From the NCBI GenBank assembly GCA_039815375.1, contig JBCBZJ010000001.1, positions 256,001-320,000 of the forward strand: a DNA stretch of 64,000 bases. Reading direction: 5' to 3'. The notes under the pieces were generated by a model that had not been told where the DNA came from, made no database searches, and was given only the letters and a program-made list of their open reading frames with translations. Both the position numbers and the translations under genes were made by a program. This document shows, in pieces, positions 18,010-63,343 of the stretch (the stretch's first letter is position 1; the number at the start of each line of letters is the position of its first letter). The DNA comes from Verrucomicrobiota bacterium (GTDB lineage: Bacteria > Verrucomicrobiota > Verrucomicrobiia > Opitutales > Coraliomargaritaceae).

Positions 18010-21000
18010 CTAGTCCGAGGTTTGCAAGCCCACGGTGATGCGGAAGAAATTCTGATCGAAATTCGACTCGGAAGTCTTTGCCGTCAAACCGTAGCGGTCC
18101 TCGCTAAGATAGCCCAGCCCGTTATCTGCAGGGCCAACAAAACTCGCACTTTCTAGAGTCTGCGACGAGACGAGGCCGAAGACAAATGCGTCAACATATT
18201 CGTCCGGGAAGGTGAACTGCACTTCAAATGTATTGATCGGTTCTCCGCTCCAGATGATTTCGATTTCAGTTGGGAACAAATTATAAATGGGTTCAGCAAG
18301 ATCTCCAGCGCGTGGATCGGCTCCTGAGATTTGATACTGCAGGTAGGAGTGCCCGGTATCCGGATGTTCGTCGTAGGCATCGACGGCTCCGATCTCACCG
18401 AAGAAGAATTGCTCCCATGCGTCGTCGAGAAGGTTGGCATTGGTGTCGTTGTCGGTGGCGACGGGCGTTACGATGGAGTCGATGGATATGATCTCCATTG
18501 TGTCGAATCCAGTTACTGGATCCACATCTGTGTAGCCACTCAAGGTATAGCTTGTGCCAATATTCAGGCCCAGGCCCTGTTCGAGGATAAAGCGTTCTCC
18601 GGATGCATCTGTAAGCCAAGCCAGATTGTTATTCAAGAGGCGGCGGTAGTCATAGCGATGCCCCGGAGTGGTCGGCTCTTCGATGAAGAGTGTCCATTGT
18701 TCTGTTGGGCGCTTTGTGTCGAGAGCGAGTGCCAGAATCGCGAGGAGTTCCGTTTGCGCATCGGCTAGATCCTGGGCGGGTATGGTGGAGAATGGGTCGG
18801 TGCGTGCCGGATCACCCGGTGCGGGGTCGACAATGGAGCCGGAGCGCAAGATCGAGCGCCAGGCATCGAGGGGCAGTGCCATGAGTGGATTGGCGTCGGA
18901 TGTAGCAACGTGTCGGTCGTAAATCGTGTTTGCGAGTGTTGGCAGATCTGCTGAGGCACGGACCTCGGTGTCGATGACTTGGAGCATGGATTGGAAGTCA
19001 CACCCATCGTCAAGGAGTGCCTCAAGCATGTCCTGGGATAAATTCGTTTTCGCTGCTTCTCCATCACGGGATCCAAATAGTGTCCAATCGTCGACTGTTG
19101 AAGGGACCTCGAGGCTGGACTTTATGTCGGTGCTCAGCGTGTCGAGTGCAGAGAAAAGCGCCTGCTCTCCTAGGGTCGCGATTATCGTATCCACAGGATC
19201 AATACGTGTGATTTGTGTGACGGGATCAAAGCTTGAATAGGCGGTTCGTGCTGCTGCGATCCAGGCGTCTGCGTCGCTCTGCAGATCTGTGCCGGTGGGA
19301 ACGGTGACGATACTTGGTGGATCAAAGGCTGGGTTCTGGAGGATGCGGAATGTTTCCCGACCGTCACGAGGTGCGGGGATACTGGAACCAAGACCAAAGT
19401 AGGTCGGCGTCGAAAGGATAAGCCATTCGTGGTCGGGGAGATTGCTGGTTACATCCATTCGAGCAGCATCGCTTCCGGCGAGTGTGCCACTTGTGATCTC
19501 TTTGACTTCGTTGCGGGTGAGTAATGTGGATCGCATGTCGTAGGCAAATAGGTTTGTGCCCTCGGTATCGTCGGCGCGATCTGTCGCCTGCTGAGCTAAG
19601 TCTCCGTCAGAAGGTGGTGTGTTGGCCGGGGGTGTCGTCGGTGTGCCGCCATCGTCGTATGGTGCGGCGGAACCCGTTGTGCTGTCGAAGGCCTGGGCAT
19701 AGAGGAAGAATCCTTCTCCAAGGAAAGGCGGGTTTCGATCTTCCGGTGCGACATTGCTGAGTGGATCGTTCGGATCCGTTTCCTGATACGTGTTGAGGGC
19801 GATTTCGTAGCCGAGTATCTCTTCGAGGTCAGGCTGGAAATCCAGATCAGTGTCGGCCCCACCAAATGGGTCGAGTTGTCTGGCCTCCTCGACATAGTCT
19901 GGCACGCCGTCGTTGTCGGAGTCGATGGAGTTGAGGTCGACGGAGAAGCTGAAGCTGCGGTTTTGTATCGGCCCCATTTTTCCGGTTGTGAGGTCTCGCG
20001 CATAAAAGATGAGTTCAGTCGGATATCCAATCGTGAGCGGCTCGGTGTATTGCGTCCAAAAGTTTTCCGATGTGCGCCTAAAGAAGGCTTCTGCAGTCTG
20101 GTCGTCGAAGAGAAGGGTAAAGGTTACGGCAGTGTTGTAGGTGCCGGATTCTGGAGAAGCGATAAGTGACGGGATGGAGAGGGAGAAGGTATCGGCTAGA
20201 GAGGCAACCGAAGCATTGGCATCGATCTGACTGGTCATGACATGCGTCGCGCCAGTCGGTGCAGCCGTTGCATAGGCGGAAGGGTTATCCAGACCGGAGC
20301 TTGAGCCGACAAAGGTCTCCCGCTCGAGGCTGGTCGGTAGGGTGCCGCCTCCGAGTGTCCAGTCTGGCACGATATCGAGCTGGAGGAGTTCGGCGGTCGG
20401 ATCGACGAGTGGAGTCGAGTTATACCAAAAGAGTGTCGCGAAGTCGGTGGAAGGGGCGCTCAGCCAAGGCGAAAGCTCGCCTGATGCGATTTGATTCCAG
20501 CCGCTACCGGTGTTTGTGAAAAAGTGCCAATTTGTGCTGACGAGATCGTTCCCACTCTGGAAGGCGACGATACCCTCGCCCGGGATCGGTAAAAGTCCGG
20601 TAATAAGATCATCGCCGGACGGGCTAAATGCCTGAACGATAGTGAATTCGAATTCGGTCGGCACTGGCCCGTTTGGAACGACCAGAGCATAGACTGCCTC
20701 AGTGCCATCGGCTGAGGTGATGAGAACCCCTTCGGACGCATTTGGGATACCTCCGTAGGGAATTGGAGCAATGGAGCCTATACCAAAACTCAGCGGGAGT
20801 GAGGGAGCCAAATTTTCAGTGAAGCCGCCGAAGGTGTGCGTGAAAATCTCTGCAACGGGCTGACCGGGAACATAGGCGATGGTGCAAATGCGACCGTCGT
20901 TACCAATGACTTCGGTCGTCAGCTGGCTACCCATCGCAACGTTGTCCCCTGTATTGGCTCCTTCGATGGCATCGCCGCTGCGAAAGATTGAGATCAGTGA

Positions 21001-21597
21001 GTCTGGAGTCGGTGAGTCGAAAATCCCCATACCCAGTTGATCGCCGGAAACGGGATCACGCAATGGGACGGACTTGCGGAGTGCGGCGTTAATTGGATCG
21101 ATTAGATCGAGCTGGGTCTTTGCCGAAAATGGGTCCTCTATCAGCTCGAGACTATTGGCACCTGGGCCATAGAGGCTGCTAAGAAAGACGGGCTCGTCGG
21201 TGTTTCCGGAAACGTTGAGTGGAAATGCAAGCTCTGGTCCCGGCACCGATGGGAAAAGGTAGCGGGGTTGCGTCTCGTTTTCGGCCAGAAAGGCGACGCG
21301 GTTCGAAAAGATGGACGACAAGATGACGTATTCGTTGCCCCCGGAGACAAAGCCCGAGCTCAGGCCCGTGATATCGGACAGATCGGAACGCAGTGGCCCA
21401 GTCTGAAGAAGCGTGCCATTGAACTCGGAGAAGAAGCGGACTTGCCCCGTTGATTTGTCGACAAAGGCAAAGCGGTCCGATTGCTCCATCGGCACGAACC
21501 ATTCGTTTGGCAACGAGGTGGCAGGAGCGGCATCGGTGACGCAGGAGAGTCCCGCGAGGCAGAGCGATATCGGAGCAAGCTTGATTAAGTGTTTCAC
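18010..21597 (-). CDS. Large secreted protein C (about 1195 aa): beta-rich N-terminus, Fn3-associated/CHB-like module, Ca-binding DxDxD repeats, C-terminal sorting-like tail
   Basis: GTG 21597 gives signal peptide [23 protein letters not shown] and removes the overlap with the upstream gene; [52 protein letters not shown]; ends [13 protein letters not shown]. Confidence 0.85.
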
Positions 21598-21617
21598 AGC
21601 GTCAGGACCTTCTTTTG

Positions 21618-24600
21618 TTACGGGTGTGAAATCGTGTTCGTTGGAATGATGCGACTGATCTCTCCGCGTTCGGTGAAGTGAACGATCAGGTATTGGTAGT
21701 TGGCGCCAGAGGAGGCTGGCACCACGTCGCGAATCCACATGGTCGAGTCGAATACCGAGTTTGCGGGATTCGCCGAGGCATCGATCTCTAGATATTCTGG
21801 GTTCGATGGGGAGCCTGAGATAGCGACTCCAGTCGTAAAGGTTGAGAGATCGCGGGAAAAGCTGCCCGATAGTGGGACTGGCATTGGAGTCGGGAAGGAC
21901 TGGTCGAATGTGCTGAAGATAAAGAATGGATCACGCGCGCGGAAGTAGTCGAAGGAGTTTCCATTTTGATCGCTGCCGGTCAGGGTCTGATAGGCAATGC
22001 GGTCGATCAACGGTGTGATTTGAACAAGATTCGGCTTGGCGTCCGGGAAGCGTGTTGAGGCTACTTGATAGCGGTAGATAACAAAGGGGACGACACTTTC
22101 AAGAGAGTCGGCTGGGAGTGTATCTATGTTCTGTTTGCGGTAGTTGAAGAGCCACTCAATCGGGTCGCGATCGTCAGGGAAGGAGGCTTCTGAGGTAGAC
22201 TCATTCCCTATGCCTGTTGCAGGAAACAGGCCGACGAGGATCGCTGCAGAAGCGCCCATATTGTTCATCGCGGTTGGTGGAATCGGGTAGGCGAAAAATG
22301 GGCCCTCTCCAGGAACGTAGCTATCCACGTCGATACCAATATCTGCGATTCCGGGAAGGGGGCGTGCTGGCCAGGGGATCACGTCCTGAGGCCCAGAGAC
22401 AGGTTGTATCCATAAGTCTGATACGATATTTGAAAAGTCGCCTCGGGTGTATTCGTAGGCATCGGTCGAAGGGTCGAGCACCTGTGAGCCGATGCCTCGC
22501 ACTACGTAGTAGAGTTTCTTGTCCGCCGGGACGGTAAGATTTAATGAGAACTCACCATTGCTGCCAAACCCGGATGCCAGAGAGTTTGTTCGATAGACGG
22601 AGAAGGTGAGGGTCTCGCCGTTCTCATCGGTTAGGTTTGGATTCGTGTCTGGCTCGATCGGCAGTGAGAGTTGAGTCGAGTCGATGCCTGGATCTGAGTC
22701 GCCTTCTGCTGCGACCCATACCTCGAAGCGATCAATGCCGACTGGATCGCAGAACCATGAAAGTTTGACGACGGGAAGATTGCCAGCTGGGTCAAGGTCT
22801 ACGGGGTCGAAGAGCATGGGGACACCCAGATCTTCGTTCTGGACCGTGACGCATCCGAGCCGGACCATGGCCGAGCCGTTCCCGTGCAGGTCGAAGACTT
22901 GAGCGTAGTAGCATGCGGTTGTTCCGTTAACGAGAGTCGGCGCGCGTTCCTTCCATTCGTAAATCGCATCGAAATCGCTCTCGCTGGATTCGCGGGAGAT
23001 CAGCTGGAACTCTGGAGATCCATCTACGCGTCGGTAGACACGGACTTCTCGCACGCCGTCGCTGAGGAAGACGGTGCCGCATACGCCGGTGATGGAATCG
23101 TCTGGACCTACAGGTGTGTGAGGATAGGGCACGATGCCGGGGATAACTTCGACCCATGGAGGGCAGTCTTCGATTCGGCCACTACTGCCGTCGGGGAGGA
23201 GCTCGAGGACGCGTTCATTGATGGACCCATTTTCATCACGAAGGAAGGATGAAGCAATGAGTGTCGGGCAGCAAATTTCGACATAGCCCCGAAAATCATA
23301 GCGCGTGATGAGGCCCTGCTCCTGGTTGAATCCGAGCGCACTGATCGTGACCCAAGAGCTGACGGATCCATCGCCGAGGCGTGCCCGCACTCGTATGTTT
23401 TTTCCATCTTTGTCAGCAATGGGCACGATTACGTCACCATACTGCTCGAATCCTTTGTAATAATAGGTTGTCGAAAATTGAGTTTCGAATGTTCCGTTGG
23501 AGGCGTTGTCGACACCGTATTCCACATCGAAAGATTTGACCTTCTTTATGACGGCGTCGCTTTCTGGATCGGTGCGGGAGACGCGAACAACAAATCCTGG
23601 ATCACTGTCATTGAGTCCATAATCGGAGCGTCGCGCAGTGGTGCCTTCATTGGTTAGAGTTAAGTATGGGATGCAGTAGCAAATGATAAGGGAGCCGGTT
23701 GGCTTATCTGGGCCAACTCGGTCGCGCGGCACGCCGTAGGTTGCTCCGGAGTGGCCCGAGTAATTTTGCGGGGTGCATGCCGTGGTGTCCACCGCACGCA
23801 CGGTATACCAGAAGGTCTGTCCCATTGCGGAGTCGTTTTCACTGTTTACTACGGGTGCTCCCGTGTCGGCTCCGACAGTCGCGTCATTCGGGTCCTGACC
23901 ACCCGGGCCATCTAGGTCGAGATCAGCGGCATTGTCGTCATCAAAGTAAGCGTAACGCTGGCCCGGCACATGAGGCACGCTACCAATGTAGTTGGCCTCA
24001 GGGTCTGCGCCGAGACGCATCCAATCTGTAGCGGCATGCCAGCGATAGATACGGTATTCGCTCGCGGTGCGGTCTTCCGGGGTATCCGGCAGCTGCTCGA
24101 TGACGACTTGGAGGTGTTGTGTGCCCGTGCCGGCAAGTGGGTCGGCGCTGGCCATGTCGAAGATGTTGTCGACCGAAACAATCGATGGTGCTGGGGGTGG
24201 TAGGCGGTCGCAGACCGTGATCAGAAGTGATGGCGGGGAGAGCGGCCCTGGGTGCCCTGCGATATCACGCGCGGCGACATAGTAGTAAAATTGTTCGCCG
24301 TCTTCAAACCCGGGGTCTGGTGCGTCGTTGTCGTCGCCGTAGAAGAAGTCGCCTTCTTGAAAGCTTGTGTCGGCTGCTTCCGCATCGGAGATGAGTGAGC
24401 TCGCCACTGCCGGGAGCCGATTAACGCGGATGCCACCCAGACCAAGCAGGTCGGCTTCGAAGAAGAGGCTGTTCGGTGAAATCGCAGCGTTATCGATGAT
24501 TTCTTTTGAAATACGGTAGAGGTTGAAGCCGTAGGTGTGGGGCATGAGCGCGCGGAGGTCATCTGGCGTTCCCCAGCGCGTGAGGATGGTGAGGTGGTCT

Positions 24601-25340
24601 TTCGGCGAGGCGTTGTTTTGCAGATTCGGGTCGTTCACGTGGAAGACCTGACGTGGCGCGTCGGGCGAGAGCAGCATTTGAGGGTTGTCTGCGTCGAGTG
24701 TGACGCGCCCGATGACGCGAATGTCATCATTGCTTCCATCGATCTCGCGGACCTCGTAGGTGCGCAGTGATGCCGAAGGAACTTGAATGCTAAAGCCGAG
24801 CCCAAGGCACATTTGCACGCCGGGGTGGGCACGGCCGAGGGAGACGAGCGACTGGAGCACTTCCGCATCAGTCAGAGCGACGGTCATGATCTGAGCAAGA
24901 TCCTGAGCGACGTCTAAATCGATCTCAGTGGGGTAGACGTAGTCTGCCGGTAGCGGAACGGCTTGAGCTTCCGCATTCAGCGCGACGATACGTTCCGGAA
25001 GCTGCGCACCATCAGCATCTACGAGCTCGCCCAGTTTGAGGAGGGCCTGAATCGTGCTCGGGGTGTATTGCAGCTCCTGGATACCGACGAGTTCGTAATC
25101 ATCGACTGAGTCGGCATTGCCATCTTTTGCGTAGATACCGAAGCGCTTGCCGAAAATCGTGGCAGCATCACCCGGCTGCCAAAGAAGGTAGTCGTGCAAG
25201 GTGCTGCCTTCGTTGGTTTCGAAGCTTTTGCCGACGGTGTAAACAAGTGGGTCGGCGTTTTGCGCTTGCAGGCTACCCAAGCCGCAGAGCGCGAGTAGGC
25301 CGAGTGTAGCTCCTTGTATTAGATTTAAGAGTGGCTTCAT
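21618..25340 (-). CDS. Large secreted protein B (1240 aa) with fibronectin-III-like repeats
   Basis: Signal peptide ending LQA-Q; recurring [48 protein letters not shown] strands and [16 protein letters not shown] linkers. Confidence 0.85.
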
Positions 25341-25392
25341 GGCTATGAAATCTTGAAAGGCTTCCGTAAGTCGATGTGTCGAGGTGTTCAGT

Positions 25393-28300
25393 TTACTTCA
25401 TGGACCAGTTGCCATCGTCGAAGAGGAGTTTTACGGCTCTGCTAAATTTGACGCAGATCGGGCACCAACCCACGCGTGCCGAGAATTTACCCGTTCCCGC
25501 ACCGCGTAGTGTGCCGCCCTGAGAGGCCAGGATGATTTTGATCTCACCCTTGATTGAGACGATGCAGAGCGCTTCACCGGATACGCCGAGGAAGACCTTA
25601 CCTCCGACGACGATGTCACTCGCGTCGATGTCATTGAGGTCACCCTGCACGAAGAAGAAGGCCCCAGCGCCGACTCCGGCATCGATCCTGAAGAGGCAGG
25701 ATGCGGGCACACCGAGGACGAGTTCGGACACAGGTAGCCAGACTTCACCATAGACGTAGGCCCCGGTGAAGCTGTCGCCACCCTCGAGGACATCGCCTAT
25801 ATCCGGATCGACAAATAGCAGTGGCTCCAAGGTGCACGTTCGGCCAAAGAAGATGCCTGCGGCTACTTCGTAGCTGGAGAAGATCGCGCGGGCCTTTGCG
25901 CCCAGATAGCATTCCTCAAGGCCAATGGCCATTGTCGCACCGAACTCGAGGATCTTGAAGGTCTCGAAATCAATCTCTCCGTCTGCAAGTTCAAAGCTTC
26001 CGCCAACGCCAATCGGTAGCGGTGGTAGGCCGCCATCGCCATCGCGATCTTTGAGTGAGAGTTTTACACCGAGGTTGATCTTGCACTCTGAGATCCACTC
26101 GACGGAGACATCCTGGGCACCGATCCGGACTTCGACGACTTTCTCGCCCGGCTTCACACAGCCGGACTCGACGAAGTTATCTTCCGAGGAGTAGGCAAGG
26201 ATCTCGAGGAAGACGTGGAGTGCCATATCCTCGGGCACTTTAAACTGCATCTGTGCGTCGAGCCTGAGCTTGCGCAGTGAGTCGCCGTTAAACTCAGCGA
26301 AGCCCGATATCTCACCCGAGCCCATGTAGTCGGAGACGTCGCCAAGCATGGAGTTGATCTGATCTTCAAGCGGTCCGATGGCCTTACTGATCGCTTCTTT
26401 GAGGACTACACTGAACTGCGCGAAGACCGATTGCAGCGATGAGGTCACCTTGTCGGAGATATCGTAAAGCGTTTGGCGCAAAATATACTGCGTCTGTGTG
26501 ACGATATCTGATCCGAGGATCGCATCTTTGATCTCATCCTTAACGAGCTGGACGAATGCATCTTCGCTGAATTCTGCCAAGAAGCTGTCGGCATACTCGC
26601 TGAAAAGTTCCGCCTGAGCTGATGCATCGGTAATGCCGAGAGACTGTTCGATCTGCAGGAAGAGTGACCAAGCACGTGTCGTCGCGGGGCGGATCATTTC
26701 GTTGAGATCACCGCCAGACTTTGCGGCGATGATCATATCCGTAAATTGGTCGACGATGTCGCCTACATTGGTCAACTCGGTATGAACGTCAGCGAGGAAG
26801 CCGCGGACGGTGACAAGTGCTTCGCTGATCTGCTCTAGCGTTGGATCAACGTCTACCAGGAGCGCGTTCAGCTCGTCGTTGAGCTCGGAGGTAAGATTCA
26901 GGATGAGCGGTTCGACCACGTCGCGGACTTGTGGCTCAACGAGCTCAACCAGTAGCGTTCGAATTACTGCCGGTACGATCTGGCGATCGCCATTGCCGTC
27001 TTTGGAAAGGATGCCGGGCAAGTCGATTGAAGCTAAGCTTGGTGTGGTGATGTTTGCGGTATAGTCCTGAGCCTCGTCGATACCCACGGTGATGGCGTCG
27101 ATGCCTTTGATGATCTCCTCAAGTGCCTCTTCGATCTGAGTGAGGAAGCTGCCAACGTCACCTCCAGTGTCGGCTATGAGGCAGAGCTGATCCTGAATAG
27201 CCTGGAGCTCTGGGATGCTTAGGAAGAGTGCGTCGCTCGGATCGTTGAGCGTATTTTTAACCTCCGTCTTGAAATCCAGATAAGAGTATCCGGGGTTGTT
27301 CGTATGGAAACCCTCAACAAGGCGGTAGAGCTCGCGGATCGGACCAGGTGAATCTGCTGTGCCTGCAGCCGCTTCGACGACTGGATCGATCATGTCGTTC
27401 AGACTGTCTTCGAGCATCTTCTCGAGTTCACTCAGACCGGCATCGATTGCATCCTTAGGCGCTTGGCCGATCTCGTTGGCGATGGCGTTGGCGGCACCAT
27501 CGATTTGATCGTTGAGGAAGTTCGTCAGCTTGATTTCGGGAAGCCCGTCATAAGTCGCGCCGAACGAAATGTTGGTGAACTTCGCGTCCATCCAGTCGAT
27601 CTTGTGCTCCATTTGAGCAACGAAGATATCTTGGGTGCGTGCTTTATTCGAAGCGAAGCGTCGCGTGTTGTCATCCCAAAGCAGCGGGTATTCGAGCGGG
27701 ATGAAGCCGAACATATCCTGACGCGCTTTGATCAGGTAGGTCTCAAGGGTGTCTATAGTAGGAGACTTGTATTCGTCGAAATCAATCGTCCCGAGTGGTG
27801 GGAAGGAACGGTGGTCCGAGTCGAAGCTAACGTCGGTAAAGAATGTTTCCCCTGAGTCGGTCCATCCCGGAGTGAGTGCGAACGTGGCCGAGTCGGAGGT
27901 CGGGTCGTCGTTCGTCGTTGAGGTAGTGATGGCCTGCACCTCGAGGTCGGTGAAGTATGGAATGTCGATGGTGCCGGCGAAGGTCACAATGCCGCCACCG
28001 TGAGAGGGTGCCCCGGTCTCGGTCGGATTGTTGAAGCGGAGCTTAGTCGTGGTGACCAGGTTGTAGTCCTTGTTCGGGCCGGACAGTCCGATCGACGCAG
28101 GAAGGCGTAACTGTGAGTCAACAGATCCTGAGCCGCCAAGCACGTCTGCGAGCGTGGTGAGGTTTCCGCTTGGATCAAACGCGAGCGAGCCAGTCAGCAC
28201 CTGTGGCACGTGAGACGCTCTCAGACTTGCGCCAACGGCGAGGTTTGCGCCGAAATCCTTCGGGCATGCGCCCGGGTTCTTCTCGAAGGTATCGAAGGCC

Positions 28301-31122
28301 ATGGCCTTCAGGTCGAAGTTCGAATTCCAATAGGTGAGTGCTTTATCCTCTGCGTCCGACAAGTCGGGCGTCATTTCACCCGGCTCGCCAAGGCAATCGA
28401 AACGGAGGCTGAAGAAGGCTTGCGTCCAGTCCGAGTAGTTGGCGGGAGCTGAGCCTCCGACAGCGATGGCTCCATCGACCCAGCTGGCGCAGCCCTCAGA
28501 TTCGTTGTTGCTATCTAGGAATGAGAGTTGGAAGCGCGCAACCTCAACTTCGAATCCGTGTAGAGTGAGGCTGTCGTTGAAAGTGCCGTCGGTCGCGACT
28601 TGGCGACCGTTGACGCCGCCTTCGCGAATATAGTATTTCGAACCGGAGTTCGCGTCGAGGTCACTATCTTGGTCGGCAAGCAGATCGTAGGGGTAGTCGG
28701 ACATGTTACCGGCGAGGCGTGAGGCACCGGCAAAGTTAGCTGCCTGCACTTCGAAGGTCAGTCCGGCGAAGTCACCGTTGCCTTTGGTGTATTCCAATTC
28801 AGAGAGGATGTGGAGGTCCGGCGAGCCGAGTGGATCCCGGTTGAAGGCGGCCAGTAGCAGCGCTGCGGGTGCTCCGTCGCCCGCTACGGATTGGTAGACG
28901 TTGCTCGTCAACAGCGCATTCGAAGTGGCATAGAGTTGATAGCCGGGCATGTAGAAATTGCCCTCTGTAAATTTCCCTGTTCGGTGGGCGTAGTTGATCG
29001 CATCACGCTTACCCCATTCAAGTTCGTGGCCGCTGCCACTGTTGATGCCGTTGACCTCGCCGAATCCGTGCAGGCCGCCACCGGGTGCAAAGTAAAGCGT
29101 CGCGTCGACTACTTCCGATGTGATGGTCTCGAACTCTTCGTAACAGTCGTCTTCGACGCAGTCCTTGTAGTAGGGGACCTTGACCTCGGCGACGTTATTC
29201 AGCGCTGCGCCGTCAACCGAGCTGATGGCTCCTTCGATCAGACTGACTGGGGAGGCATTGGCGTAAGTGATATTCGATTTCTTCGGAAAGTGCGTATCGA
29301 ATGTATCGGGGGAGAGTTCCAGGTCTGCGGTCGCACGGGAGGTGCCGTCGTTGGCTCGTGTGAAGACGACACTGGCACTCTTGGCCGATGCAGTGAGTAG
29401 GTAGCGATCGTTGGAGCAGCGGTCCGCCATTGAGGGGTCATCGAGTTGCCCGCCGCCCAGTAGAACTTTTAGTTCCTCATAAGCATCTTTATGGGCGTAT
29501 TTGGCACTCGCGATGGTGAACTCGAGAGTGCCGTCTGTATTGAGCTGGCCGTCCGAAGCGTTGAAGATGATCGGGTGGGATTCGTCGGCGACTGCCGAGT
29601 TCGCGGTAAAATGCATCGCGAGGCTGAGCGGGCTCGTCCAGCAGAGATGATCATCTAGAGTAACAATCTGCGTGTCGTTGAATCGCGTCACTCCCAGAAA
29701 TTGATTTGTGGTCGTATCCTTGAAGAAGGTCATTCCCTGTGGGAAATCGACAGAGAAGCCGTTAGCGGAGGCTCCGGTTGTGCTCAGGGTCACTGAGTTG
29801 AAGCTTACATCCGGATGATCGATACAGGCGGGAGCAACCGTCGCGGGAGAGCCATCAGGGTAGGCGGTTTCACTACCGCTAAAGAGCTCCATGTGCCCGT
29901 CGGCAAAGAGGCGCACATCCATTGAGCTGCTGGTGCCGAAGTTGACGTCGGATCGGGTGACGAGGGATCCGCCATCGGTCGGGACCTCAATAGTGGTGTT
30001 TACATAGGTCGCTGTGGTGCTGTTTGCGGCAGGTGTATTATCGAATGTGTTGACGATGGCCTCGAGAGGCCCAAATTCCAAATCGCCGTTGAAATGAAGG
30101 AGCTGCTGAGCGGCGAGCGCTGTGGTGAAGCTGCTTTGCTCGTTGTTGTTGGGGTCTTCGACATGGCGGATCGTCGCTTCGACATAGTAGGTTTCGTTGA
30201 CCGAGTCGAGCTGGTTCAGCGGCAAGATCTGCTCTTCAAAAATCGCTAGGCCGTCCTCCGGGATCGGGCGGGTTCCGTTGCTCACATGCGAATTTATGGC
30301 AATGACTTGCGAGAATTCGCCATCGTTCTCCAGCGGGATTTCGTTCCCTGTGCTTTGTTCAAAAAGGTCAAAGTCGACAGTGATCGTCGTATTCACACTA
30401 CTCGCACTTACCGCGAAATCATCGTATCGAAAGATAAAAACTGCCAGGCCGACTCCGAAGCCATCATCACTGCTGTCCGTTTGAAGCGCATAGGTCTTGG
30501 TCCAGTCAAGTCCTGTTTGGAAGGTCTTGATATTATACTCAAAGTCACCGCTGCTTGTGTTATTGAATTCGATCACAGGGCTGTTTGAGGATTCGACTAA
30601 CTGACCGACGACCGGGGCGTAGGGCGTGGACGGGATGGTTAGCGGTGCTGCTTCCAATTGGCCTTCGAGGAAATAGGTCTCCTCCGGGTCAAGTGCCGCG
30701 TCTGGAATGGCGACTGCGGTCAGAGTGAAGCTTTCTGAGTCCAGGCCGGCGGCAAGGCTTACCAGTTGCGCCGTCGAATAGACAATGGTGTCCCCTCCGC
30801 TTAGGGTAACGGGGGTAGGTGCACCCCCATTCTCCGCCATAAGGCGAGTGGCGACTCGGTAAAATCTTAAGGAGCCTGAGTCCCCGGGAGAGGTATTTTC
30901 AACCGTGACACTGAATTCTCCGTTGATCCCATCGAAGTTCGTGTTGGCGTCGGCGTCGGCACCGTCTGCGTCGAGAATATAATAGGAATTTGGGACGAAA
31001 ACGCTGTCGAGTGACTCATCGAGCGCAGCATGAAGCCCGATGGGCACACTTAAAAACAGAAGCGTAGAACCGAAGACGCCGCCGAGGAAGCGTTCGAAAA
31101 ATTTAGCACGAAGAGACTTCAT
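25393..31122 (-). CDS. Large secreted protein A (1909 aa), function unknown
   Basis: Uninterrupted 5.7-kb ORF; signal peptide ending LHA-A; beta-rich body, about 400-aa amphipathic helical segment, Gly/Cys-rich beta-strand C-terminus. Confidence 0.88.
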
Positions 31123-55840: not shown

Positions 55841-57292
55841 TTAGACGTGTTTTACCGCAATAAGTGTTAAATCGTCAATTTGGCCGGTACCTTCCGAAAA
55901 CCTTTCTACACTTCCGAGAGCTTGGTCCACGATCTCCTGAGCGCTGGATTTTCCGTTGGCTGATAAAACCTCAAGCAGCCGCTCGCTGGAAAATTCTTCG
56001 CCTTCCTGGTTTACCGCTTCGGTGATCCCGTCGGTGTAGAAAAGCAGGACATCCTCACTGCCAAAGTGTATGCTGGTGTCTTGAATTACCGAGTCAAAAA
56101 TCTTCGGCTCGACCATACCGATTGCCATCCCAGGAGACTGAACGGGCCTAACGTCCACTGTGCCGTCGGAGTGACTGTTGTAGAAAAAGGGTAGTTCATG
56201 GCCTGCCCGCGCTAGTTCGAGGCGCTCTGTTTCCAAGTCAAGTACGGCATAGATCATAGTGATAAACATATCGCGCTGCATCTTCCTCTCCATTGCCTCA
56301 TTAATCGCACTCAAAACTTTCGCAGGAGAGCGATACGCTTTCGCAAAGTGGTGAAGGTGTGTCTGGCAGATTGCCATCAGCAGAGCCGCCGATATTCCCT
56401 TTCCAGACACATCTGCTATGGCAAATGCGATCGTTTTGTCATCGATCGAAAAGACATCATAAAGATCTCCACCAATCTTCTGTGCTGCCGTATAGTGACT
56501 GGCAAATGCAATGTGGTCTGCTGGCGGATACTCCTTGGGCAACAAAAGGCTCTGCACTTTTCCGGCAAGGCGCATATCTATATCCATCCGGTTCTTGTCG
56601 ATTTGTACCTGCATTGCGTCGCTGTTGTGGACGGCAAGGCCGACTTGTTCGGCCAAAGATTCGACAAGCGAGAAATCGGTTTCAGTGAAGGCGAGTCCGT
56701 CGGAAGGATTCGCCACCGCCAGAACACCGAGCAGCTTGTCTTGAAACAGCACCGGAGCCACAATGATCGACCGCACCGTGAGCGCAGGATCATCATATTG
56801 AATGACGCGTGGGTCGTTTTGAGCATTGGATATTAGTTGTGCCTGACGTGATTTAGCCACCTGACCGATGAGCCCTTCACCTATTTGGTAACTCTCTGAC
56901 TTGAGAATCTTTTCTAGAAAGCGCGTGCGTGTCGCGAGCTGATCGCTTGTTGCCTCGGGTAGCTTGCGTTGTGGCGGGAACAGACCTTCTACTGCGATTC
57001 CTTTAAGCGTACTGTCCGCACATTTCTCGAAGATGCAGGCGCTCATTGCTCCTGTACTTAGAATTGCAGCATGTATAATTCGTTGAAACATGTTTTCTCG
57101 ATCGCTGCTTTCGGCAACGGCCTCGACCATGTTATGCATGAATTCGACGACGATCTGCTTCTCTTGTTGCAGGAGCTGCTTTTGCTCTTCGATGATTTTG
57201 AATTGGCGCGTCTTGCGATTGTTGAGCACCCAGATTGCCGATGCGCCGAGAACAATTCCAAATAGCAACGGCATCATAGCTAAAATTATCAA
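55841..57292 (-). CDS. Membrane-anchored GAF + SpoIIE/PP2C serine phosphatase (RsbU-like)
   Basis: IGEGLIGQVA (GAF), IGGDLYD, IADVSGKG, RAGH, FYTDGITEA, DDLTL. Confidence 0.92.
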   Translation of the reverse strand: MIILAMMPLLFGIVLGASAIWVLNNRKTRQFKIIEEQKQLLQQEKQIVVEFMHNMVEAVAESSDRENMFQRIIHAAILSTGAMSACIFEKCADSTLKGIAVEGLFPPQRKLPEATSDQLATRTRFLEKILKSESYQIGEGLIGQVAKSRQAQLISNAQNDPRVIQYDDPALTVRSIIVAPVLFQDKLLGVLAVANPSDGLAFTETDFSLVESLAEQVGLAVHNSDAMQVQIDKNRMDIDMRLAGKVQSLLLPKEYPPADHIAFASHYTAAQKIGGDLYDVFSIDDKTIAFAIADVSGKGISAALLMAICQTHLHHFAKAYRSPAKVLSAINEAMERKMQRDMFITMIYAVLDLETERLELARAGHELPFFYNSHSDGTVDVRPVQSPGMAIGMVEPKIFDSVIQDTSIHFGSEDVLLFYTDGITEAVNQEGEEFSSERLLEVLSANGKSSAQEIVDQALGSVERFSEGTGQIDDLTLIAVKHV

Positions 57293-57308
57293 ATATTAGT
57301 AAGCGATC

Positions 57309-57815
57309 TTAATTGCTTTCCTCCTTCTCGACTTGATTGCGGAGAAATGCGATTACGTCCTGAAATTTCTCGATATTGGCTTGGTCTGCCTCTGATAGAT
57401 TTACATGAGCTTCGAGCACCTCTTTCGCACTCGAGACTTCTTCATCCCGAAGGCTCTCAAAGCGGCCCCCTGTTTCAAAATCGCAAGCTTCGGCAATACT
57501 CAACAAGTTCTGTAATCCCAAGTTGCAGATCAATTCATAGTTTCGCTCACTTAAATTACAGAGTACCAGTTCGCCTGCAGGTGTTTGCTTTCGTAGTTCA
57601 ATAGCACTGCCTGCAAGAATGCCGAGAAAGGTACTGTCCATACCCCGGCATTGGGAAAAATCCAGTACGATCTGGTTTTTGCCATTACCGATGATTTGTT
57701 CGATAAAATCTCTGAATGCATTACAATTCAGGTAATTGGCTTTGCCGTTTATCTTGACTGCAACAGGGTCACTGTAAGCACTTACGAGAAAGGTCGGCTG
57801 TTGAGGGTCACTCAT
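57309..57815 (-). CDS. STAS-domain anti-sigma factor antagonist
   Basis: VLDFSQCRGMDSTFLGIL, LGL. Start taken at ATG 57815. Confidence 0.88.
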   Translation of the reverse strand: MSDPQQPTFLVSAYSDPVAVKINGKANYLNCNAFRDFIEQIIGNGKNQIVLDFSQCRGMDSTFLGILAGSAIELRKQTPAGELVLCNLSERNYELICNLGLQNLLSIAEACDFETGGRFESLRDEEVSSAKEVLEAHVNLSEADQANIEKFQDVIAFLRNQVEKEESN

Positions 57816-57988
57816 GCACGGTGGCGCGATGAACGTTGAAGATAATAAACAAAATGTTTGCGATGAGGGTTTCAATAAAGATGCCAGAATGGCATCCTGT
57901 AGCAACTTTAATTACCTCTTCGAGCTGCTTCAAAAGCTAGTAATTGGTGCTGATTCTCTAATTTGCAAATGTTTAGACTACAGACTAC

Positions 57989-58462
57989 TCAAGCTTCCAG
58001 TGTGCTCATAATGGCTTTGAAGTCCGGGAGTTGCTTAGGATCGTCTGAAGACTCAGAATAAATAATGATGCCTTCTTCGTCGATCACGAAGGCTGAGCGC
58101 TTTGATACACCTTTAAACCCAAGCAGATCCTCAAAAAGAACATCATAAGCTGTGGAAACCTCTTTGTTGAAATCGCTCAGCAGAGGAAACTGTAGATTAT
58201 CTATAAGTGACATCTTCTCGAGCGTGAATGGACTGTCGACCGAGATGCCATAGACTGCTGCATTCAGGTCTTTGTATTTCTGAATCCCGGAATTGACCGA
58301 GCACATTTCATCCATGCAAACGCTGGTGAAGGCTAAAGGAAAAAAGAGAAGAACAGTCTTTTGCTTTCCGAAGTTATCTGCGAGTGAGACGTCATCAAGA
58401 CCATCTGCGTGCTTATGCTTAAGAGTGAATTCTGGTGCTTTAATACCTGTTGTAAGTGCCAT
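57989..58462 (-). CDS. Peroxiredoxin (AhpE/BCP-like)
   Basis: FFPLAFTSVCMDEMC, GISVDS, LLSDFN, KRSAFVID. Confidence 0.92.
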   Translation of the reverse strand: MALTTGIKAPEFTLKHKHADGLDDVSLADNFGKQKTVLLFFPLAFTSVCMDEMCSVNSGIQKYKDLNAAVYGISVDSPFTLEKMSLIDNLQFPLLSDFNKEVSTAYDVLFEDLLGFKGVSKRSAFVIDEEGIIIYSESSDDPKQLPDFKAIMSTLEA

Positions 58463-58552
58463 GTTAATGAATGGTGTTTGTGTATATTACTAGAAACACT
58501 TCTAAGTAAGTGTCGTTATTGCCTTGATGTAAAGTGCTCGATGTAGATTCAC

Positions 58553-58582
58553 AAAAAACCCCGGGCTAAAGGCCCGGGGTTT
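58553..58582 (-). terminator. Intrinsic terminator after the FecR-domain gene
   Basis: AAACCCCGGGC-TAAAG-GCCCGGGGTTT stem with an A6 flank. Confidence 0.85.
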
Positions 58583-58620
58583 CCGTAAATTGCATGAATC
58601 GCTATAAGATCAGTACTATT

Positions 58621-59490
58621 CTACAGCTCTTGAGGACCTTCGTCGCTAATGATTATGACAATGTCATCGAATTCATTTTCTTCCTTATCTGTCGCCGTGT
58701 CACTAGTATCTTCCGTGTCTTTGGAATCTTCCGCATCTTCGATAGCTTGCTCTAGATCCTCACGAATCTGACTACCCTCCGGGAGACTTCCGAGGACTTG
58801 ATTGACGATTGTCTCGTAGTCTTGACTGTCAGTGTTTAGAATTACAGAGACTGTGACTTCTTGAGGAATGCCGCTAGTTTTGTTATCGCTGCCGCCATTG
58901 TATTCTTTTACCGTACTTCCACCGGAAATAGCACCGGAATACCTGCTGGTGAAAAGGACTGTGCCGTCTATATTTGTAACTTGAAGTGTTAACTGTCCCG
59001 AGCTTCTATCGAAACCAAGGGAAATTTTGAAGCGCGTACCGCGGATGGCAGCAGTCCCGAGTGGGGTCAAAATATCAAATTTGGATCCCTCGCCGAGCTT
59101 CTTAACGTGACCGCTGAGTCCACCGTAGTTAAGTTCCAAAAGTGTTTGGGAAACACTTGGATCCGCCTCTAGTTGCTCATAAGTGTCGTTGCCTGGGAAA
59201 GATTCTTGTTCGACCTTACTCAATTTGAGGCTGGAACTCTCTTCCACTGTGAGTTCGCTACCATTTGAGAAAACCAGATCAACCTGTCCAAGCTCTTCGA
59301 CTTGAATAGTGTCGCCTTGTTTAAGTATGTCACCGGTTTTGATGGGAGCACTTTGGCCGTATTTCGTAATCTTTGTCGCAGTGCCAGTGACTCCGAGGAC
59401 CTTTGCACTAGCCAGCTCGGCCGCTTGGGCAGACAGGAAGGCAATGGAAGTTAGTAGAAATGTGAGAAAGTAGAGTTTCTTTGAATTCAT
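58621..59490 (-). CDS. Exported FecR-domain protein
   Basis: Signal peptide; GDILKQGDTI, LVFSNGS, TPLGTAAIRGTRF; acidic tail. Confidence 0.85.
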   Translation of the reverse strand: MNSKKLYFLTFLLTSIAFLSAQAAELASAKVLGVTGTATKITKYGQSAPIKTGDILKQGDTIQVEELGQVDLVFSNGSELTVEESSSLKLSKVEQESFPGNDTYEQLEADPSVSQTLLELNYGGLSGHVKKLGEGSKFDILTPLGTAAIRGTRFKISLGFDRSSGQLTLQVTNIDGTVLFTSRYSGAISGGSTVKEYNGGSDNKTSGIPQEVTVSVILNTDSQDYETIVNQVLGSLPEGSQIREDLEQAIEDAEDSKDTEDTSDTATDKEENEFDDIVIIISDEGPQEL

Positions 59491-59644
59491 ATGGACTAGA
59501 GATTAATGATGAATCTGAGATTTTAAAATTATCTTATTAAAAAGATGTTTCAAGCTTTTTAAGCATGTTCCTTCTCACGTTACATTTACTAGACAAAGTA
59601 GATTCTTGCCCGCTGTATGCATATTAGTTTAATTGAAATTCCAA

Positions 59645-60421
59645 ATGACACAATTTCGGCCATGCATAGATCTGCATCAAGGGCGCGTGAAGCAAATTGT
59701 TGGTGAGTCGCTGAAGGGCGACGGCACAGCACCGAAGATTAATTTTCAGAGCGATCACCCTGCGGCATATTACTCTAACTTATATCGCAAGGATCAGCTT
59801 CGCGGTGGTCATGTCATTAAACTAGGACCGGGAAATGATGTGGCGGCAAGAGAGGCGCTTGCTACTTATCCTGATGGGCTTCAAATAGGTGGTGGTATTC
59901 GGTTCGATAATGCGGTTGATTGGCTCCAGGCGGGAGCTAGCCATGTAATCGTTACATCCTGGTTATTCGATACCCAAGGTCGATTTCTAGAACGCAATCT
60001 AGAACAGTTGGTAGCTGAGATTGGTAAAGATCGTCTCGTGATCGATCTAAGTTGCCGTGCAGTTGCTGATGGTTGGGTCGTCGCAATGGACCGCTGGCAG
60101 AAGAAAACAGAGCTGACCCTGACGCCCCTCGCGCTCACTGATCTGGGTCATTCGTGTGACGAATTGTTGGTACATGCTGCAGATGTTGAGGGTAAATGTG
60201 AAGGAATTGACGAAGCTCTCGTTGGTTTTTTGGCTGACTTCAGTCCAGTGCCTGTAACTTATGCAGGAGGGGCTCGGTCTGTAGAGGATCTCGACAAAGT
60301 CAGCCAATTGAGTAGGGGGAGGGTTGATTTGACCATAGGCAGTGCCTTGGATATTTTTGGTGGTTCAGGAGCCAGATATGTTGATTGTCTCGTGTGGAAC
60401 TCCCGAAAGTACGATACTTAG
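59645..60421 (+). CDS. hisA: ProFAR isomerase, eukaryote-like (His6) type
   Basis: FRPCIDLHQGRVKQIVG, GGHVIKLG, HVIVTS, HAADVEG, DLTIGSALDIFGG. Confidence 0.93.
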   Translation: MTQFRPCIDLHQGRVKQIVGESLKGDGTAPKINFQSDHPAAYYSNLYRKDQLRGGHVIKLGPGNDVAAREALATYPDGLQIGGGIRFDNAVDWLQAGASHVIVTSWLFDTQGRFLERNLEQLVAEIGKDRLVIDLSCRAVADGWVVAMDRWQKKTELTLTPLALTDLGHSCDELLVHAADVEGKCEGIDEALVGFLADFSPVPVTYAGGARSVEDLDKVSQLSRGRVDLTIGSALDIFGGSGARYVDCLVWNSRKYDT

Positions 60422-60535
60422 ATAGTATCTTTGTTTGTATCTTCATAGATACATGCGTTCGAGGTTTCGAAAATACGCGCATTTTAAGATTGGCATCGGA
60501 CTTCAGGCAGAGCATTGGAAAGTTTAATAAATTTC

Positions 60536-60808
60536 ATGGAACTTTTGAACATAGGCTTCGCGCTACTTGTTGTTAAGATCGCGGTTTCGGTTCTGCCTGC
60601 TGCACTTGGCATCTTTTTATTGACCAGTTCTGAGGAAAAGAAGCGTGAGATGCGCAATTCGCTGTGCAACAAACTGTTCGGAGTGAGCAATGCGATCCCT
60701 TATCCTAATTTTGCACGGTTTCTGATTTTTATGGGATTTTTGCTCATTGCTTTTAGTGCCACAGCCTCGTGGTTTCTAGTGCTTTCAAAGATGCTTTCGG
60801 CTCAATAG
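60536..60808 (+). CDS. Small two-helix membrane protein, unknown function
   Basis: 90-aa ORF filling the intergenic gap, with two hydrophobic segments. Confidence 0.65.
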   Translation: MELLNIGFALLVVKIAVSVLPAALGIFLLTSSEEKKREMRNSLCNKLFGVSNAIPYPNFARFLIFMGFLLIAFSATASWFLVLSKMLSAQ

Positions 60809-60885
60809 GACGCCAAGCGCCTGGGAGGCCTGCAGAATCAGGCCTGATCTGCTAGGTTTCGCAGCTTGACTCAATGGTCATTAAT

Positions 60886-60901
60886 TTCAAAACTATTTGA
60901 A
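60886..60901 (+). promoter_or_regulatory. Palindrome TTCAAA-ACTA-TTTGAA, candidate autoregulatory operator
   Basis: Lies 14 nt after TTGACT (60866-60871), over the expected -10 region of the regulator gene. Confidence 0.55.
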
Positions 60902-60946
60902 CTAAATGACTTTTCAGCAAATCTACATCTGTTCTCTAGCTGTCTG

Positions 60947-61495
60947 ATGCCCGAATACAAACCAGTCCAACCTCTTTTCCAGTGGGAACGAGCAACTATT
61001 GAAATTTTCGTCAGGGCAGCAAATATGGTCGGGCTTCCACGATCTATTGGAGAGATTTACGGTTTGTTGTTCTGCTCAGAACTTCCACTCACCTTTGATG
61101 AACTTGTCGACCGCTTGCAGATTAGCAAAGGCTCTGTCAGTCAAGGCTTAAAACTTCTAAGACAGTTGGGCGCGGTTCGCCTTCATTACGTCCCGGGTAG
61201 CCGCAAGGATCATTTTGAGCCTGAACTCTCGATGAAGCGCCTAGTTAAGGGCTTCGTTAAAGATCAGTTTAGTCCTCATTTGGAATCGGGTGAGCAGAGT
61301 CTGCAACAAATTGAAACGATGATTGAAAATGAAGCCGACTCCTCCGGGCGCGATCATGCGCAGGCAAGACTAAGCAAATTGAGATCGTGGCAGAAGCGCA
61401 CTCAGAAACTCGTCCCTATTATAATGGCTGTTCTGGGCGGTGCGCAATTTTTAGAATCTCCTGAGATGACTAAGGGCCGTAGAGAGGTCGTTTAG
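60947..61495 (+). CDS. GbsR/MarR-family transcriptional regulator
   Basis: GLPRSIGEIYGLLF, LQISKGSVSQGLKLL, GSRKDHF. Confidence 0.9.
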   Translation: MPEYKPVQPLFQWERATIEIFVRAANMVGLPRSIGEIYGLLFCSELPLTFDELVDRLQISKGSVSQGLKLLRQLGAVRLHYVPGSRKDHFEPELSMKRLVKGFVKDQFSPHLESGEQSLQQIETMIENEADSSGRDHAQARLSKLRSWQKRTQKLVPIIMAVLGGAQFLESPEMTKGRREVV

Positions 61496-61580
61496 TTCGA
61501 TTTTCGATTGCGGCAGTGCTGCATCAAAAAACAGTTCAAAATACTTCGAGACTGGTTTCGCACTTATGCGAGCGACCAAT

Positions 61581-61591
61581 GGCGGTAGCGT
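61581..61591 (+). promoter_or_regulatory. ops element (RfaH-type antitermination signal)
   Basis: GGCGGTAGCGT on the sense strand in the leader of a polysaccharide operon, preceded by a hairpin. Confidence 0.65.
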
Positions 61592-61715
61592 CTCATCGGC
61601 CTATGCTAATAAGACGAGTTCAAGCACTCATTTCAGAATCTGAACTAATTGCTAAAATGCCTTATCCGCACTTAAACTGCGACCTTTAACCTAGACTGTT
61701 AATCTAAATCCGTTC

Positions 61716-63218
61716 GTGCTCTTTTCTGCTCTATTTTTTCTTTTGCTTGGATGCTTCCTTTCATGGCTGGTGATCCATCTGTCCTTACATCTTGGGTTGG
61801 GCCAATCTCAAGGAGAGCAAATACAACACCACCATACACATACGGGATTTATACCGCGCATTGGTGGCTTAGGTATTGTTGTTGGTCTTACAGTCACTTA
61901 CCTGCTATGCTTTTTCTATTTAGATCAACGTGATAATCAGTCACTTATCCATTACAGTATCTTTGCGGGCGCAGTGATTGCTTTTTTATTGGGCTTTATC
62001 GATGACTTTCATCCTCTGGGGGCAAAGATAAAGATGCTCGTTCAGATCATTATTGCGCTCTTGGTGCATAGTGCGGGGCTAGCTGTAGAATTTGTGCGTG
62101 TTCCCTTCTGGGATGTGCAATTCGAGTTCGGTCCCTTTAGTGTGTTTATTACTGTTTTCTGGATCGTTGCCCTGATGAATCTAATCAATTTGATTGATGG
62201 TTTGGATGGTTTAGCGGGTGGTATTGGACTTATGCTGATGTGTCTTCTGGCTTTCCTGGCATATGAGTCCGGTATTGCCTATTCTCTTATTTTATCGCTC
62301 GGGATGATTGGGGCAATTCTTGGTTTTCTCTTTCATAATTTTCCGCCTGCTAAGGTCTATATGGGTGACTCCGGTGCTTACCTAATAGGTTTTGTGATCG
62401 CAGCGCTTTCACTTTTGAACTCAGAGAAAGGAACTGTACTAGCCGCTTTGATTGCCCCGGTGCTCGCTATGGCGCTTCCAATATGTGACGTTGCATTCGC
62501 GATTCTTCGTCGTGGCTTAAAGGGCTTGCCCTTGTTTCGGCCGGATCGTGGTCACATCCATCATCGCCTGATCGCTAGTGGCTTGTCTCGTCAAAAAGCC
62601 GTTTTACTTCTTTATTTTATATCCCTCATCGCTTTGGTCGGCGGCTTGTTGGCTTTTGCATCACAAGGGCGTTATCTTCCGATTTTTTTCGGGTTTGTCT
62701 TCGTATTGATACTCTTTGTCCTGCGGGGTCAAAAAGTAACACCTCAAGGTTTTACCCAAATTCTGAATGAGTCTTTTGAGGCACGGCAGGATACTAAAAA
62801 TGCCCTTTATCTGCGCGACTGGCTGATTGTTGAAGCAGAACGTGCTGATACAGGAGAACACCTTTGGTCTGACTTCCGCTTTGTTTTAAAGAAGATGGGC
62901 TTTTGCTTCGTCAGTCTTGAGATTGGAGATGATGTGAGAACTTATTATCAACCCAATACCAAGTTTGAAGTAGCCGAAGCGACCTGGTCTGAAGTCCACT
63001 CTTCTGAAGGCACTAGCCTGACCCTACGGGCTGAGAAAGATAACTTCTCAGAGCGCCAGTTTCTTGTTGTTGCAGACATTGCGACTGAAGCTTGGAGCAA
63101 AGCAGCAGCTCGCTGGCGCGAAATAAACGGCGCTGAATTCAGTTTTGATACCTCTGCAAAGCCTGCTGATAGCTATCGGCTTCAAAAGGCGAGAAATCTA
63201 TACCGGCCCACGTATTAA
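61716..63218 (+). CDS. wecA: Undecaprenyl-phosphate GlcNAc-1-phosphate transferase (WecA/TagO, glycosyltransferase family 4) with soluble C-terminal extension
   Basis: PRIGG, GFIDD, NLIDGLDGLA, NFPPAKVYMGDSG, DRGHIHHRL. Confidence 0.88.
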   Translation: MLFSALFFLLLGCFLSWLVIHLSLHLGLGQSQGEQIQHHHTHTGFIPRIGGLGIVVGLTVTYLLCFFYLDQRDNQSLIHYSIFAGAVIAFLLGFIDDFHPLGAKIKMLVQIIIALLVHSAGLAVEFVRVPFWDVQFEFGPFSVFITVFWIVALMNLINLIDGLDGLAGGIGLMLMCLLAFLAYESGIAYSLILSLGMIGAILGFLFHNFPPAKVYMGDSGAYLIGFVIAALSLLNSEKGTVLAALIAPVLAMALPICDVAFAILRRGLKGLPLFRPDRGHIHHRLIASGLSRQKAVLLLYFISLIALVGGLLAFASQGRYLPIFFGFVFVLILFVLRGQKVTPQGFTQILNESFEARQDTKNALYLRDWLIVEAERADTGEHLWSDFRFVLKKMGFCFVSLEIGDDVRTYYQPNTKFEVAEATWSEVHSSEGTSLTLRAEKDNFSERQFLVVADIATEAWSKAAARWREINGAEFSFDTSAKPADSYRLQKARNLYRPTY

Positions 63219-63343
63219 AGCGTGCCAATCGTACTATGTCTCAAGGCTCTCTTCTTTGCTTTACTTAGACTAGTTTTCCTACTTCAGCCTAAAAAGGCAT
63301 TGCACATACAACCAAACTTTTGCCCTCAAGCTGATTTGTTCTG

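Follow-up and report, generated by a model that had tools for sequence, protein, structure and literature searches.

The window analysed here, a 64,000-nucleotide stretch from the genome of a Verrucomicrobiota bacterium of the family Coraliomargaritaceae (assembly GCA_039815375.1, contig JBCBZJ010000001.1, positions 256,001 to 320,000), contains an operon of three very large genes, A, B and C, and this cassette is an inseparable three-gene unit. Specifically, in a screen of 401 Verrucomicrobiota genomes, each at least 90% complete, full-length A, B and C were found in the identical 20 genomes (E<=4e-103, source genome included), and full-length single genes in no other. A, B and C probably assemble into a single complex, and the reading tentatively preferred here is a secreted three-protein complex that would insert a large predicted beta-sheet of A into a foreign membrane. 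In window positions and amino acids (aa), the three genes are as follows.

Gene A: 25393-31122, minus strand; 1909 aa; subunit predicted to be secreted and to engage membranes or lipids
Gene B: 21618-25340, minus strand; 1240 aa; predicted fibronectin type III (FN3)/Ig domain string into which helices are inserted (residues 94-178), followed by a flexible linker and a C-terminal beta domain
Gene C: 18010-21597, minus strand; 1195 aa, GTG start; FG-GAP-like N-terminal repeats, Ig-like CHB_HEX_C domain, TSP3 calcium-type repeats and a C-terminal tail domain (from homologues)

Distribution and inheritance of the cassette

The 20 carriers remained from raw matches to A in 24, to B in 22 and to C in 107 of the 401 genomes, once four short matches to the helices of A (E 4e-7 or weaker), two short ones to FN3 and 87 genomes whose matches to C were all short and at the level of repeats (<=64 bits) had been set aside; mostly no more than two candidates per genome were scored, and related genomes are not independent. 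The distribution is patchy, covering about 5% of genomes, and all 20 carriers have genomes of at least 3.0 Mb. Two of them (G274 and G330) hold two copies each of A, B and C. Cultured strains also have the cassette: Coraliomargarita akajimensis (77, 78 and 67% identity), Roseibacillus and Luteolibacter marinus.

An earlier note on this DNA had set the co-occurrence of A, B and C beforehand as the test of its proposal, and had named single, unlinked homologues as the outcome that would count against it. Instead, besides sharing their 20 genomes, the genes stand in the order A-B-C at 102 of the 129 loci fetched, and contig ends cut 25 of the remaining 27. Among the 49 listed GTDB loci, 42 read A-B-C, five are cut by a contig end, one holds a lone A and one reads B-C-A; the metagenome loci (80 of 119 kept) comprise 60 in A-B-C order and 20 cut by contig ends, and 18 of 20 regions from 19 screened genomes show the same order. 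As the B-C-A locus (L051:1685-13809) illustrates, the three genes thus remain together after rearrangement.

The gene trees of A, B and C largely agree. Across 62 dereplicated loci, the pairwise identities of the three proteins correlate (rho 0.64-0.79), and supported splits are shared between A and B in 34 of 42 cases, between A and C in 25 of 42 and between B and C in 24 of 41, with 3, 8 and 8 in conflict, respectively. The copy in the source genome has a Roseibacillus copy as its sister and is distant from the copy in a genome of the same genus (G002), and a grouping of the source copy with the G002 copy and a Coraliomargaritaceae copy is rejected (approximately unbiased test, p-AU 4e-42; quick tree, 30 rows), which argues for transfer of the whole cassette, or for an old duplication followed by loss. 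The cassette looks horizontally moved; a plasmid search with A gave no match. Covariation between chains, computed on 96-114 paired loci (effective number 61-69), yielded a few recurring columns, which were taken as phylogenetic noise.

Database homologues number 68 for A, 97 for B and 12 for C, and the named ones all belong to Verrucomicrobiota, including Kiritimatiellae. A profile of A 712-1909 finds 604 representatives at E<=1e-30 (fragments counted) and 1891 at E<=0.001, the best 150 of which were looked at. In a few loci, A, B or C is broken into two frames (L055:9740-15423, L018, L030, G336:C1:4977143-4980630), through decay or assembly error.

At the locus itself, the earlier note had described three co-oriented open reading frames (ORFs) of 1909, 1240 and 1195 aa between rsmE and metH, and this is confirmed: all three are intact, with gaps of 52 nucleotides between A and B and 20 between B and C, flanked by MetH and by RsmE (PF04452), which comes after C. 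The start of C was set at the GTG codon because homologues are about 1160 aa long, the resulting N-terminus is hydrophobic, and the alternative frame of 1242 aa given by the ORF finder overlaps B. A scan of the locus for promoters and terminators stayed at chance level, and among 6 sequencing runs none was listed as holding RNA.

All three proteins are likely secreted via Sec. A hydrophobic N-terminal core is present in 61 of 67 database proteins for A, 81 of 97 for B and 7 of 12 for C, where control windows average 6.0, 6.75 and 1.25. The signal-peptide evidence is this hydropathy heuristic; it backs the Sec-type signal peptides that the earlier note had seen on all three. A lipobox occurs in just three A, three B and no C proteins, and the same heuristic finds no later transmembrane helix. 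The described richness in Asp/Glu, Thr and Gly also holds (14-15%, 6-9.5% and about 8%), and Lys is low. Cys is numerous in A and B by count, as claimed (17 and 13, with 4 in C), but its share of about 1% is ordinary. Pfam and NCBIfam scans of A, B and C gave no match passing cut-off, in keeping with the remark that no catalytic, transporter or regulator motif is recognisable; searches for paralogues in the source genome and for internal repeats in each protein found none. Elsewhere in the window, the GC content of positions 56000-64000 is mostly 0.43-0.46, below the 0.55 of the operon and the roughly 0.52 of other parts; this stretch is possibly a foreign segment.

Predicted architecture of the three subunits

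Subunit A can be divided into five parts.

A residues 1-32: 31027-31122, minus strand; likely Sec signal peptide (sequence; heuristic, 61/67 homologues)
A residues 33-711: 28990-31026, minus strand; beta-rich, less conserved N-terminal part, where homologues insert MAM-like, HYR, beta-helix, propeller and FG-GAP modules
A residues 712-1192: 27547-28989, minus strand; predicted beta region whose final strands run into the C-terminal sheet (AlphaFold model; porin alignments from model residue 440-474 to 1198)
A residues 1199-1597: 26332-27528, minus strand; long amphipathic helices in a predicted bundle, with no transmembrane helix (model; hydrophobic moments)
A residues 1600-1908: 25399-26325, minus strand; antiparallel sheet predicted to have 16 strands and a hydrophobic face on one side, and likely disulfide-tied loops (model, covariation, conservation)

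Conservation across the whole system is highest in the C-terminal sheet. In the AlphaFold model of A 712-1909 (predicted local distance difference test, pLDDT, 76; predicted template modelling score, pTM, 0.50), a beta region is followed by about 400 helical residues and a 16-strand meander, and covariation across 208 sequences confirms the pairing of adjacent strands of the sheet. Its hydrophobic face, about 100 positions in this one sheet, consists of 41% LIVM, 14% Ala, 15% Gly and 14% aromatic residues, and the opposite face is 30% charged. Hydrophobic stripes average about 9 residues, and amphipathic stripes per 100 aa number 3.4 in A, 1.7 in BamA and 0.8 in B. On the polar face, covariation reveals Gly-aromatic pairs (W1795-G1846, W1795-G1816, F1822-G1840) and a disulfide-tied fold-back loop (G1741-V1771, D1772-K1842, C1655-C1763); both resemble barrel lumens, for which the available part of 10.1101/2020.10.22.346965 describes Gly kinks and aromatic rescue. 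Of the eight turns opposite both termini, six have at most five residues, four of them just two. Eight Cys are invariant across 48 A homologues, and the long helices have mean hydrophobic moments of 1.1-1.6.

The top matches of a structure aligner to A are outer-membrane barrels (Z 9-12). Several of the porin alignments begin before the helices, and the sheet is therefore predicted to be open and continuous; TamB, VPS13, SprA and pore-forming toxins are absent among the 50 best matches listed, which does not exclude them. Sequence searches of the PDB returned coiled-coil look-alikes of the helices for the A family profile (best E 6e-6, a chemoreceptor) and nothing significant for the profile of the sheet. 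At the predicted level, the model, the barrel-like matches and the face composition support the assignment of A as the membrane-interacting subunit in the earlier note, and A probably engages lipid.

As judged from homologues, the adhesin-type modules at the N-terminus of A are swappable, with more than 100 extra N-terminal residues in 37 of 182 full-length proteins. A remote A-like protein (P0068, 2281 aa) matches A 1555-1904 with 24% identity and carries N-terminal FG-GAP repeats and CARDB; its sequence suggests a second subfamily, in which a propeller resembling that of C would be joined to the core of A.

For B, the confident model of residues 29-1228 (pLDDT 87.6) predicts beta-sandwiches in a row, the first of them holding five inserted helices, then a low-confidence linker and, at the end, a beta domain. 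FN3 arrays come up both in Foldseek and in the second aligner, with single domains matching at Z 9.4-9.7 and a root-mean-square deviation (rmsd) of 2.4-3.0 Å; no catalytic fold appeared in these searches, and a PDB sequence search with the B profile gave nothing significant. The FN3 nature of B named in the earlier note thus finds support in model and structure matches, and B may act as the scaffold it proposed. One B homologue (P0141, 1393 aa) has an autotransporter passenger-associated repeat (PF12951) close to its C-terminus.

The domains of C come from its homologues, which at E<=0.01 match TSP3_bac in 17 of 34, FG-GAP_3 in 8 of 34 and CHB_HEX_C_1 in 4 of 34 cases; the C of the window has no match there. 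A propeller in C seems plausible from these repeats. NCBIfam matches of C homologues (MtsD, Amuc_1099 and others) were attributed to the calcium-type repeats, and PDB sequence searches with profiles of C and of its N-terminal part gave nothing significant. The end of the protein carries a further feature.

C, last ~80 residues: 18013-18252, minus strand; F-[FY]-R tail domain, common to other predicted secreted proteins of the source genome; likely sorting signal

A tail profile built from other proteins of the genome, without C, finds 18 tails and one control window among 2467 ORFs, and tail-bearing ORFs include C11:256818-258041 (window:818-2041), C11:255129-256151 and C11:176529-178139. The profile matches 20 of the 34 tails of C and none of the 49 of A or the 42 of B, consistent with the earlier observation that C alone of the three bears the shared tail, although this test is not fully independent, because the profile seeds came from matches to a C-tail profile; the tail of the C in the window is itself missed at E<0.01. 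On the analogy of type IX tails, this F-[FY]-R tail appears to be a sorting signal specific to the phylum, and a literature search found no description of it. The source genome encodes four secretins; SprA of type IX secretion was not found there, though the search control was also silent.

Possible membrane insertion and its alternatives

The preferred reading combines these parts into the following possible sequence of events. A, B and C would be exported by Sec; A and B, which have no tail of their own, would leave the cell with C or be held by it, with C supplying the likely export tail and B a predicted fibronectin-III arm. The exchangeable N-terminal modules of A would choose the target surface, and its bundle of amphipathic helices would cover the sheet or rest on a lipid surface. 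The sheet, predicted to be open, could then close on itself or with other copies of A into a barrel, enter from outside a membrane that is most likely foreign, and breach it. Barrels built by BAM, the beta-barrel assembly machinery, have both termini in the periplasm. Their short turns lie on the periplasmic side as well (available part of 10.1101/2020.10.22.346965). In A, the tight turns are predicted opposite the termini, the reverse of BAM-built barrels, an arrangement that would fit insertion from outside.

Several observations weigh against this reading. The sheet is modelled as open, at a pTM of 0.50, and strands ahead of the helical domain continue it; the rmsd to porins is mostly 7-14 Å, at best 5.7 Å over 171 residues. 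No known pore-forming toxin is prominent in the fold searches, and the top Foldseek ranks for A are lipid-transfer proteins. Aromatics are enriched at stripe ends when no controls are used (0.27 versus 0.12, p=0.005); the controlled ratio of end to inner aromatics, however, is 1.24 in A, 1.12 in BamA and 2.25 in TamB (5 sequences) and does not tell BamA and TamB apart. Aromatics on the hydrophobic face (20%) are nearer to TamB (17%, 5 sequences) than to BamA (36%), and for Gly on the polar face A takes a middle place with 15%, TamB having 7% (5 sequences) and BamA 25%. As to the unit itself, some second copies are unlinked: one locus (L050) holds a lone A in a genome with a second B elsewhere, and the second set of A, B and C in G274 is spread over three contigs. 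Finally, there is no linked immunity gene, cargo or variable effector, an absence that would suit only a target dissimilar to the producer, or no attack.

This last point rests on the surroundings of the cassette. A fourth conserved gene was sought in the 49 listed GTDB loci, and no neighbour family occurs in more than 5 of the 49, with frames below 100 aa left unclustered and with fast-evolving immunity genes able to slip past neighbour clustering. A C-terminal extension of A exceeds 30 aa in 1 of 182 full-length homologues, and none of the 148 A, 126 B and 102 C frames extends by more than 60 aa. The polymorphic toxin that the earlier note had offered as one option, having neither a variable tail nor an immunity gene, is thereby disfavoured. 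The commonest neighbour family is DUF1573 (5 of 49 listed loci), a small gene beside the cassette in L014:22347-23117, L015, L028, L036 and L049, four times immediately following C.

Nearly as likely as membrane insertion, and not separated from it by the sequence test, is a possible role of A as a secreted lipid carrier or particle scaffold, with a concave hydrophobic face serving as groove or belt and with B and C tethering it to the cell; algal membranes, oil droplets or vesicles would be the lipid source, and A would work like ApoB, lipovitellin or TamB. Foldseek ranks ApoB100 first (E 1.7e-4, probability 0.66), followed by MTP, lipovitellin and vitellogenin, but these matches reflect only the order of secondary structure, since the template modelling (TM) score of the query is 0.04-0.10 and the rmsd 36-65 Å. 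That order, beta-alpha-beta with amphipathic helices inserted into one continuous sheet, recalls the ApoB belt, which carries inserts according to the available part of PMC11839476. The face composition nearer TamB and a sub-threshold Apolipoprotein Pfam match in one A homologue point the same way, and a carrier would need no immunity gene. Against it, the Gly-aromatic pairs and fold-back loop of the polar face are more lumen-like, and no conserved uptake or lipid-metabolism gene was found near the cassette in the 49 listed loci. What decides between insertion and carrier is the concave face: a hydrophobic convex face or closed barrel would speak for the former, a hydrophobic concave face for the latter.

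It is rather unlikely that the sheet anchors in the outer membrane of the producer itself, displaying B and C as adhesin or scaffold in the manner of an oversized autotransporter. The 16 strands past the helical domain, aligned best to 16-stranded porins, would suit such an anchor, as would the adhesin-type modules on A and C and a terminal residue that is F or Y in 79 of 188 A proteins and L in 28. Yet BamA ends in F or Y in 29 of 30 cases, the source copy of A ends in K with a final strand of only about 5 residues, the tight turns lie opposite the termini, and the modelled sheet continues N-terminally. Least probable is a non-membrane, S-layer-like sheath or filament with the hydrophobic face of A buried in protein-protein contacts: the acidic, Thr/Gly-rich, low-Lys composition, the FN3 string and the calcium-type repeats would agree with it, but not the roughly 100 hydrophobic-face positions in one sheet together with amphipathic helices, the restriction to 20 of 401 genomes or the lack of internal repeats in all three proteins.

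Relation to known systems and significance

Literature searches found no description of the A-B-C locus (the available part of PMC12057145 holds general remarks on giant genes), and in these searches its design matches no described system. For each of TANFOR loci, BAM barrels, AsmA/TamB, DUF6603 operons and Tc toxins, A-B-C lacks a defining trait; a distant kinship with the Bacteroidota giant-protein clusters is conceivable, as is one with ApoB-type proteins. By analogy, the closest working parallels of A-B-C would be multi-component complexes that insert into membranes, or large lipid-transfer proteins.

In Bacteroidota, TANFOR loci encode large Sec-exported proteins with FN3 domains close by and a neighbour with a C-terminal sorting domain (available part of PMC7073777). 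These polymorphic toxin loci share with A-B-C the large Sec-exported proteins, FN3 in the locus and one sorting-tail carrier among untagged partners; A-B-C differs in its fixed three-gene order, its lack of a type IX tail and its Verrucomicrobiota membership. The N-terminal TANFOR domain (TIGR02542) is absent from A, B, C and 34 C homologues (NCBIfam), and there is neither toxin tail nor immunity gene; a genome search for the TANFOR domain was blank, but its control also gave no signal. Of the link to Bacteroidota clusters of FN3 and giant proteins drawn in the earlier note, a resemblance in layout is what remains, no TANFOR domain having turned up in A, B, C or the 34 C homologues; the comparison is one of descriptions.

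With 16-stranded porins and type V barrels (OmpT, OmpF, PorB, CymA), A has in common the antiparallel meander, an aliphatic and a polar face, stripes of about 9 residues and a polar-face loop. Its 16 predicted strands also agree with the even number of membrane-length amphipathic strands of BAM barrels, whereas the conserved C-terminal aromatic signal of BAM barrels and autotransporters is lacking, given the 79 of 188 versus 29 of 30 above. A further differs in being predicted open, in its inverted tight turns, in the 1600 residues ahead of the sheet and in its two obligatory partners. Similarly, large lipid-transfer proteins (ApoB100, MTP, lipovitellin) and the AsmA/TamB grooves are alike in their continuous amphipathic sheet, amphipathic helical insert and similar face composition, but the multi-domain model of A reaches a TM of at most 0.10 against the lipid-transfer proteins, there is no sequence match, and A has adhesin modules and FN3 and putative propeller partners. 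For AsmA/TamB, no Pfam match was found in A, B or C, and PF04357 was not found in the genome searched (G000), while controls responded.

DUF6603 (PF20248) proteins are a language-model look-alike of the A sheet (score 0.83, a lead only) and also lie in runs of very large genes, but kinship finds no support (hmmsearch best E 0.28 on a DUF6603 protein; hhalign probability <1%, 10 sequences), and their neighbours are unlike B or C. These runs, found in Verrucomicrobiota, Streptomyces, Rhizobium and haloarchaea (for example L089:10415-13129, L090:8770-12198, L092:6813-10316, L093:6807-10196 and L098:6966-9932), form a separate giant-protein system, on which a literature search for DUF6603 found no paper. 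Tc (ABC) toxins consist of three large components, with an RHS/YD shell around a cargo and a membrane-inserting largest subunit that forms a helical channel. A-B-C resembles them in its three large components, FG-GAP-type repeats in one and a putatively membrane-inserting largest subunit; it differs in its signal peptides and in a beta-sheet in place of a helical channel, and no RHS/YD, SpvB or cargo Pfam family was found in A, B, C, 34 C or 36 B homologues.

The broadest description, a retargetable three-subunit machine that acts by inverted-topology barrel insertion or ApoB-like lipid wrapping and is exported piggy-back on a Verrucomicrobia C-terminal sorting signal, is a fair possibility, though short of likely. 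If insertion is true, the cassette would be a new kind of pore-former, made from a single huge sheet; if the carrier is true, it would be a bacterial extracellular apolipoprotein-like lipid carrier, also new. In addition, it offers a clean way to find out whether untagged partners are exported by means of the F-[FY]-R tail, and its presence in cultured strains opens it to experiment. Verrucomicrobia are abundant and free-living, and their secreted machinery has been little studied; this strictly three-part cassette, with its 604 representatives (fragments counted), is a large family.

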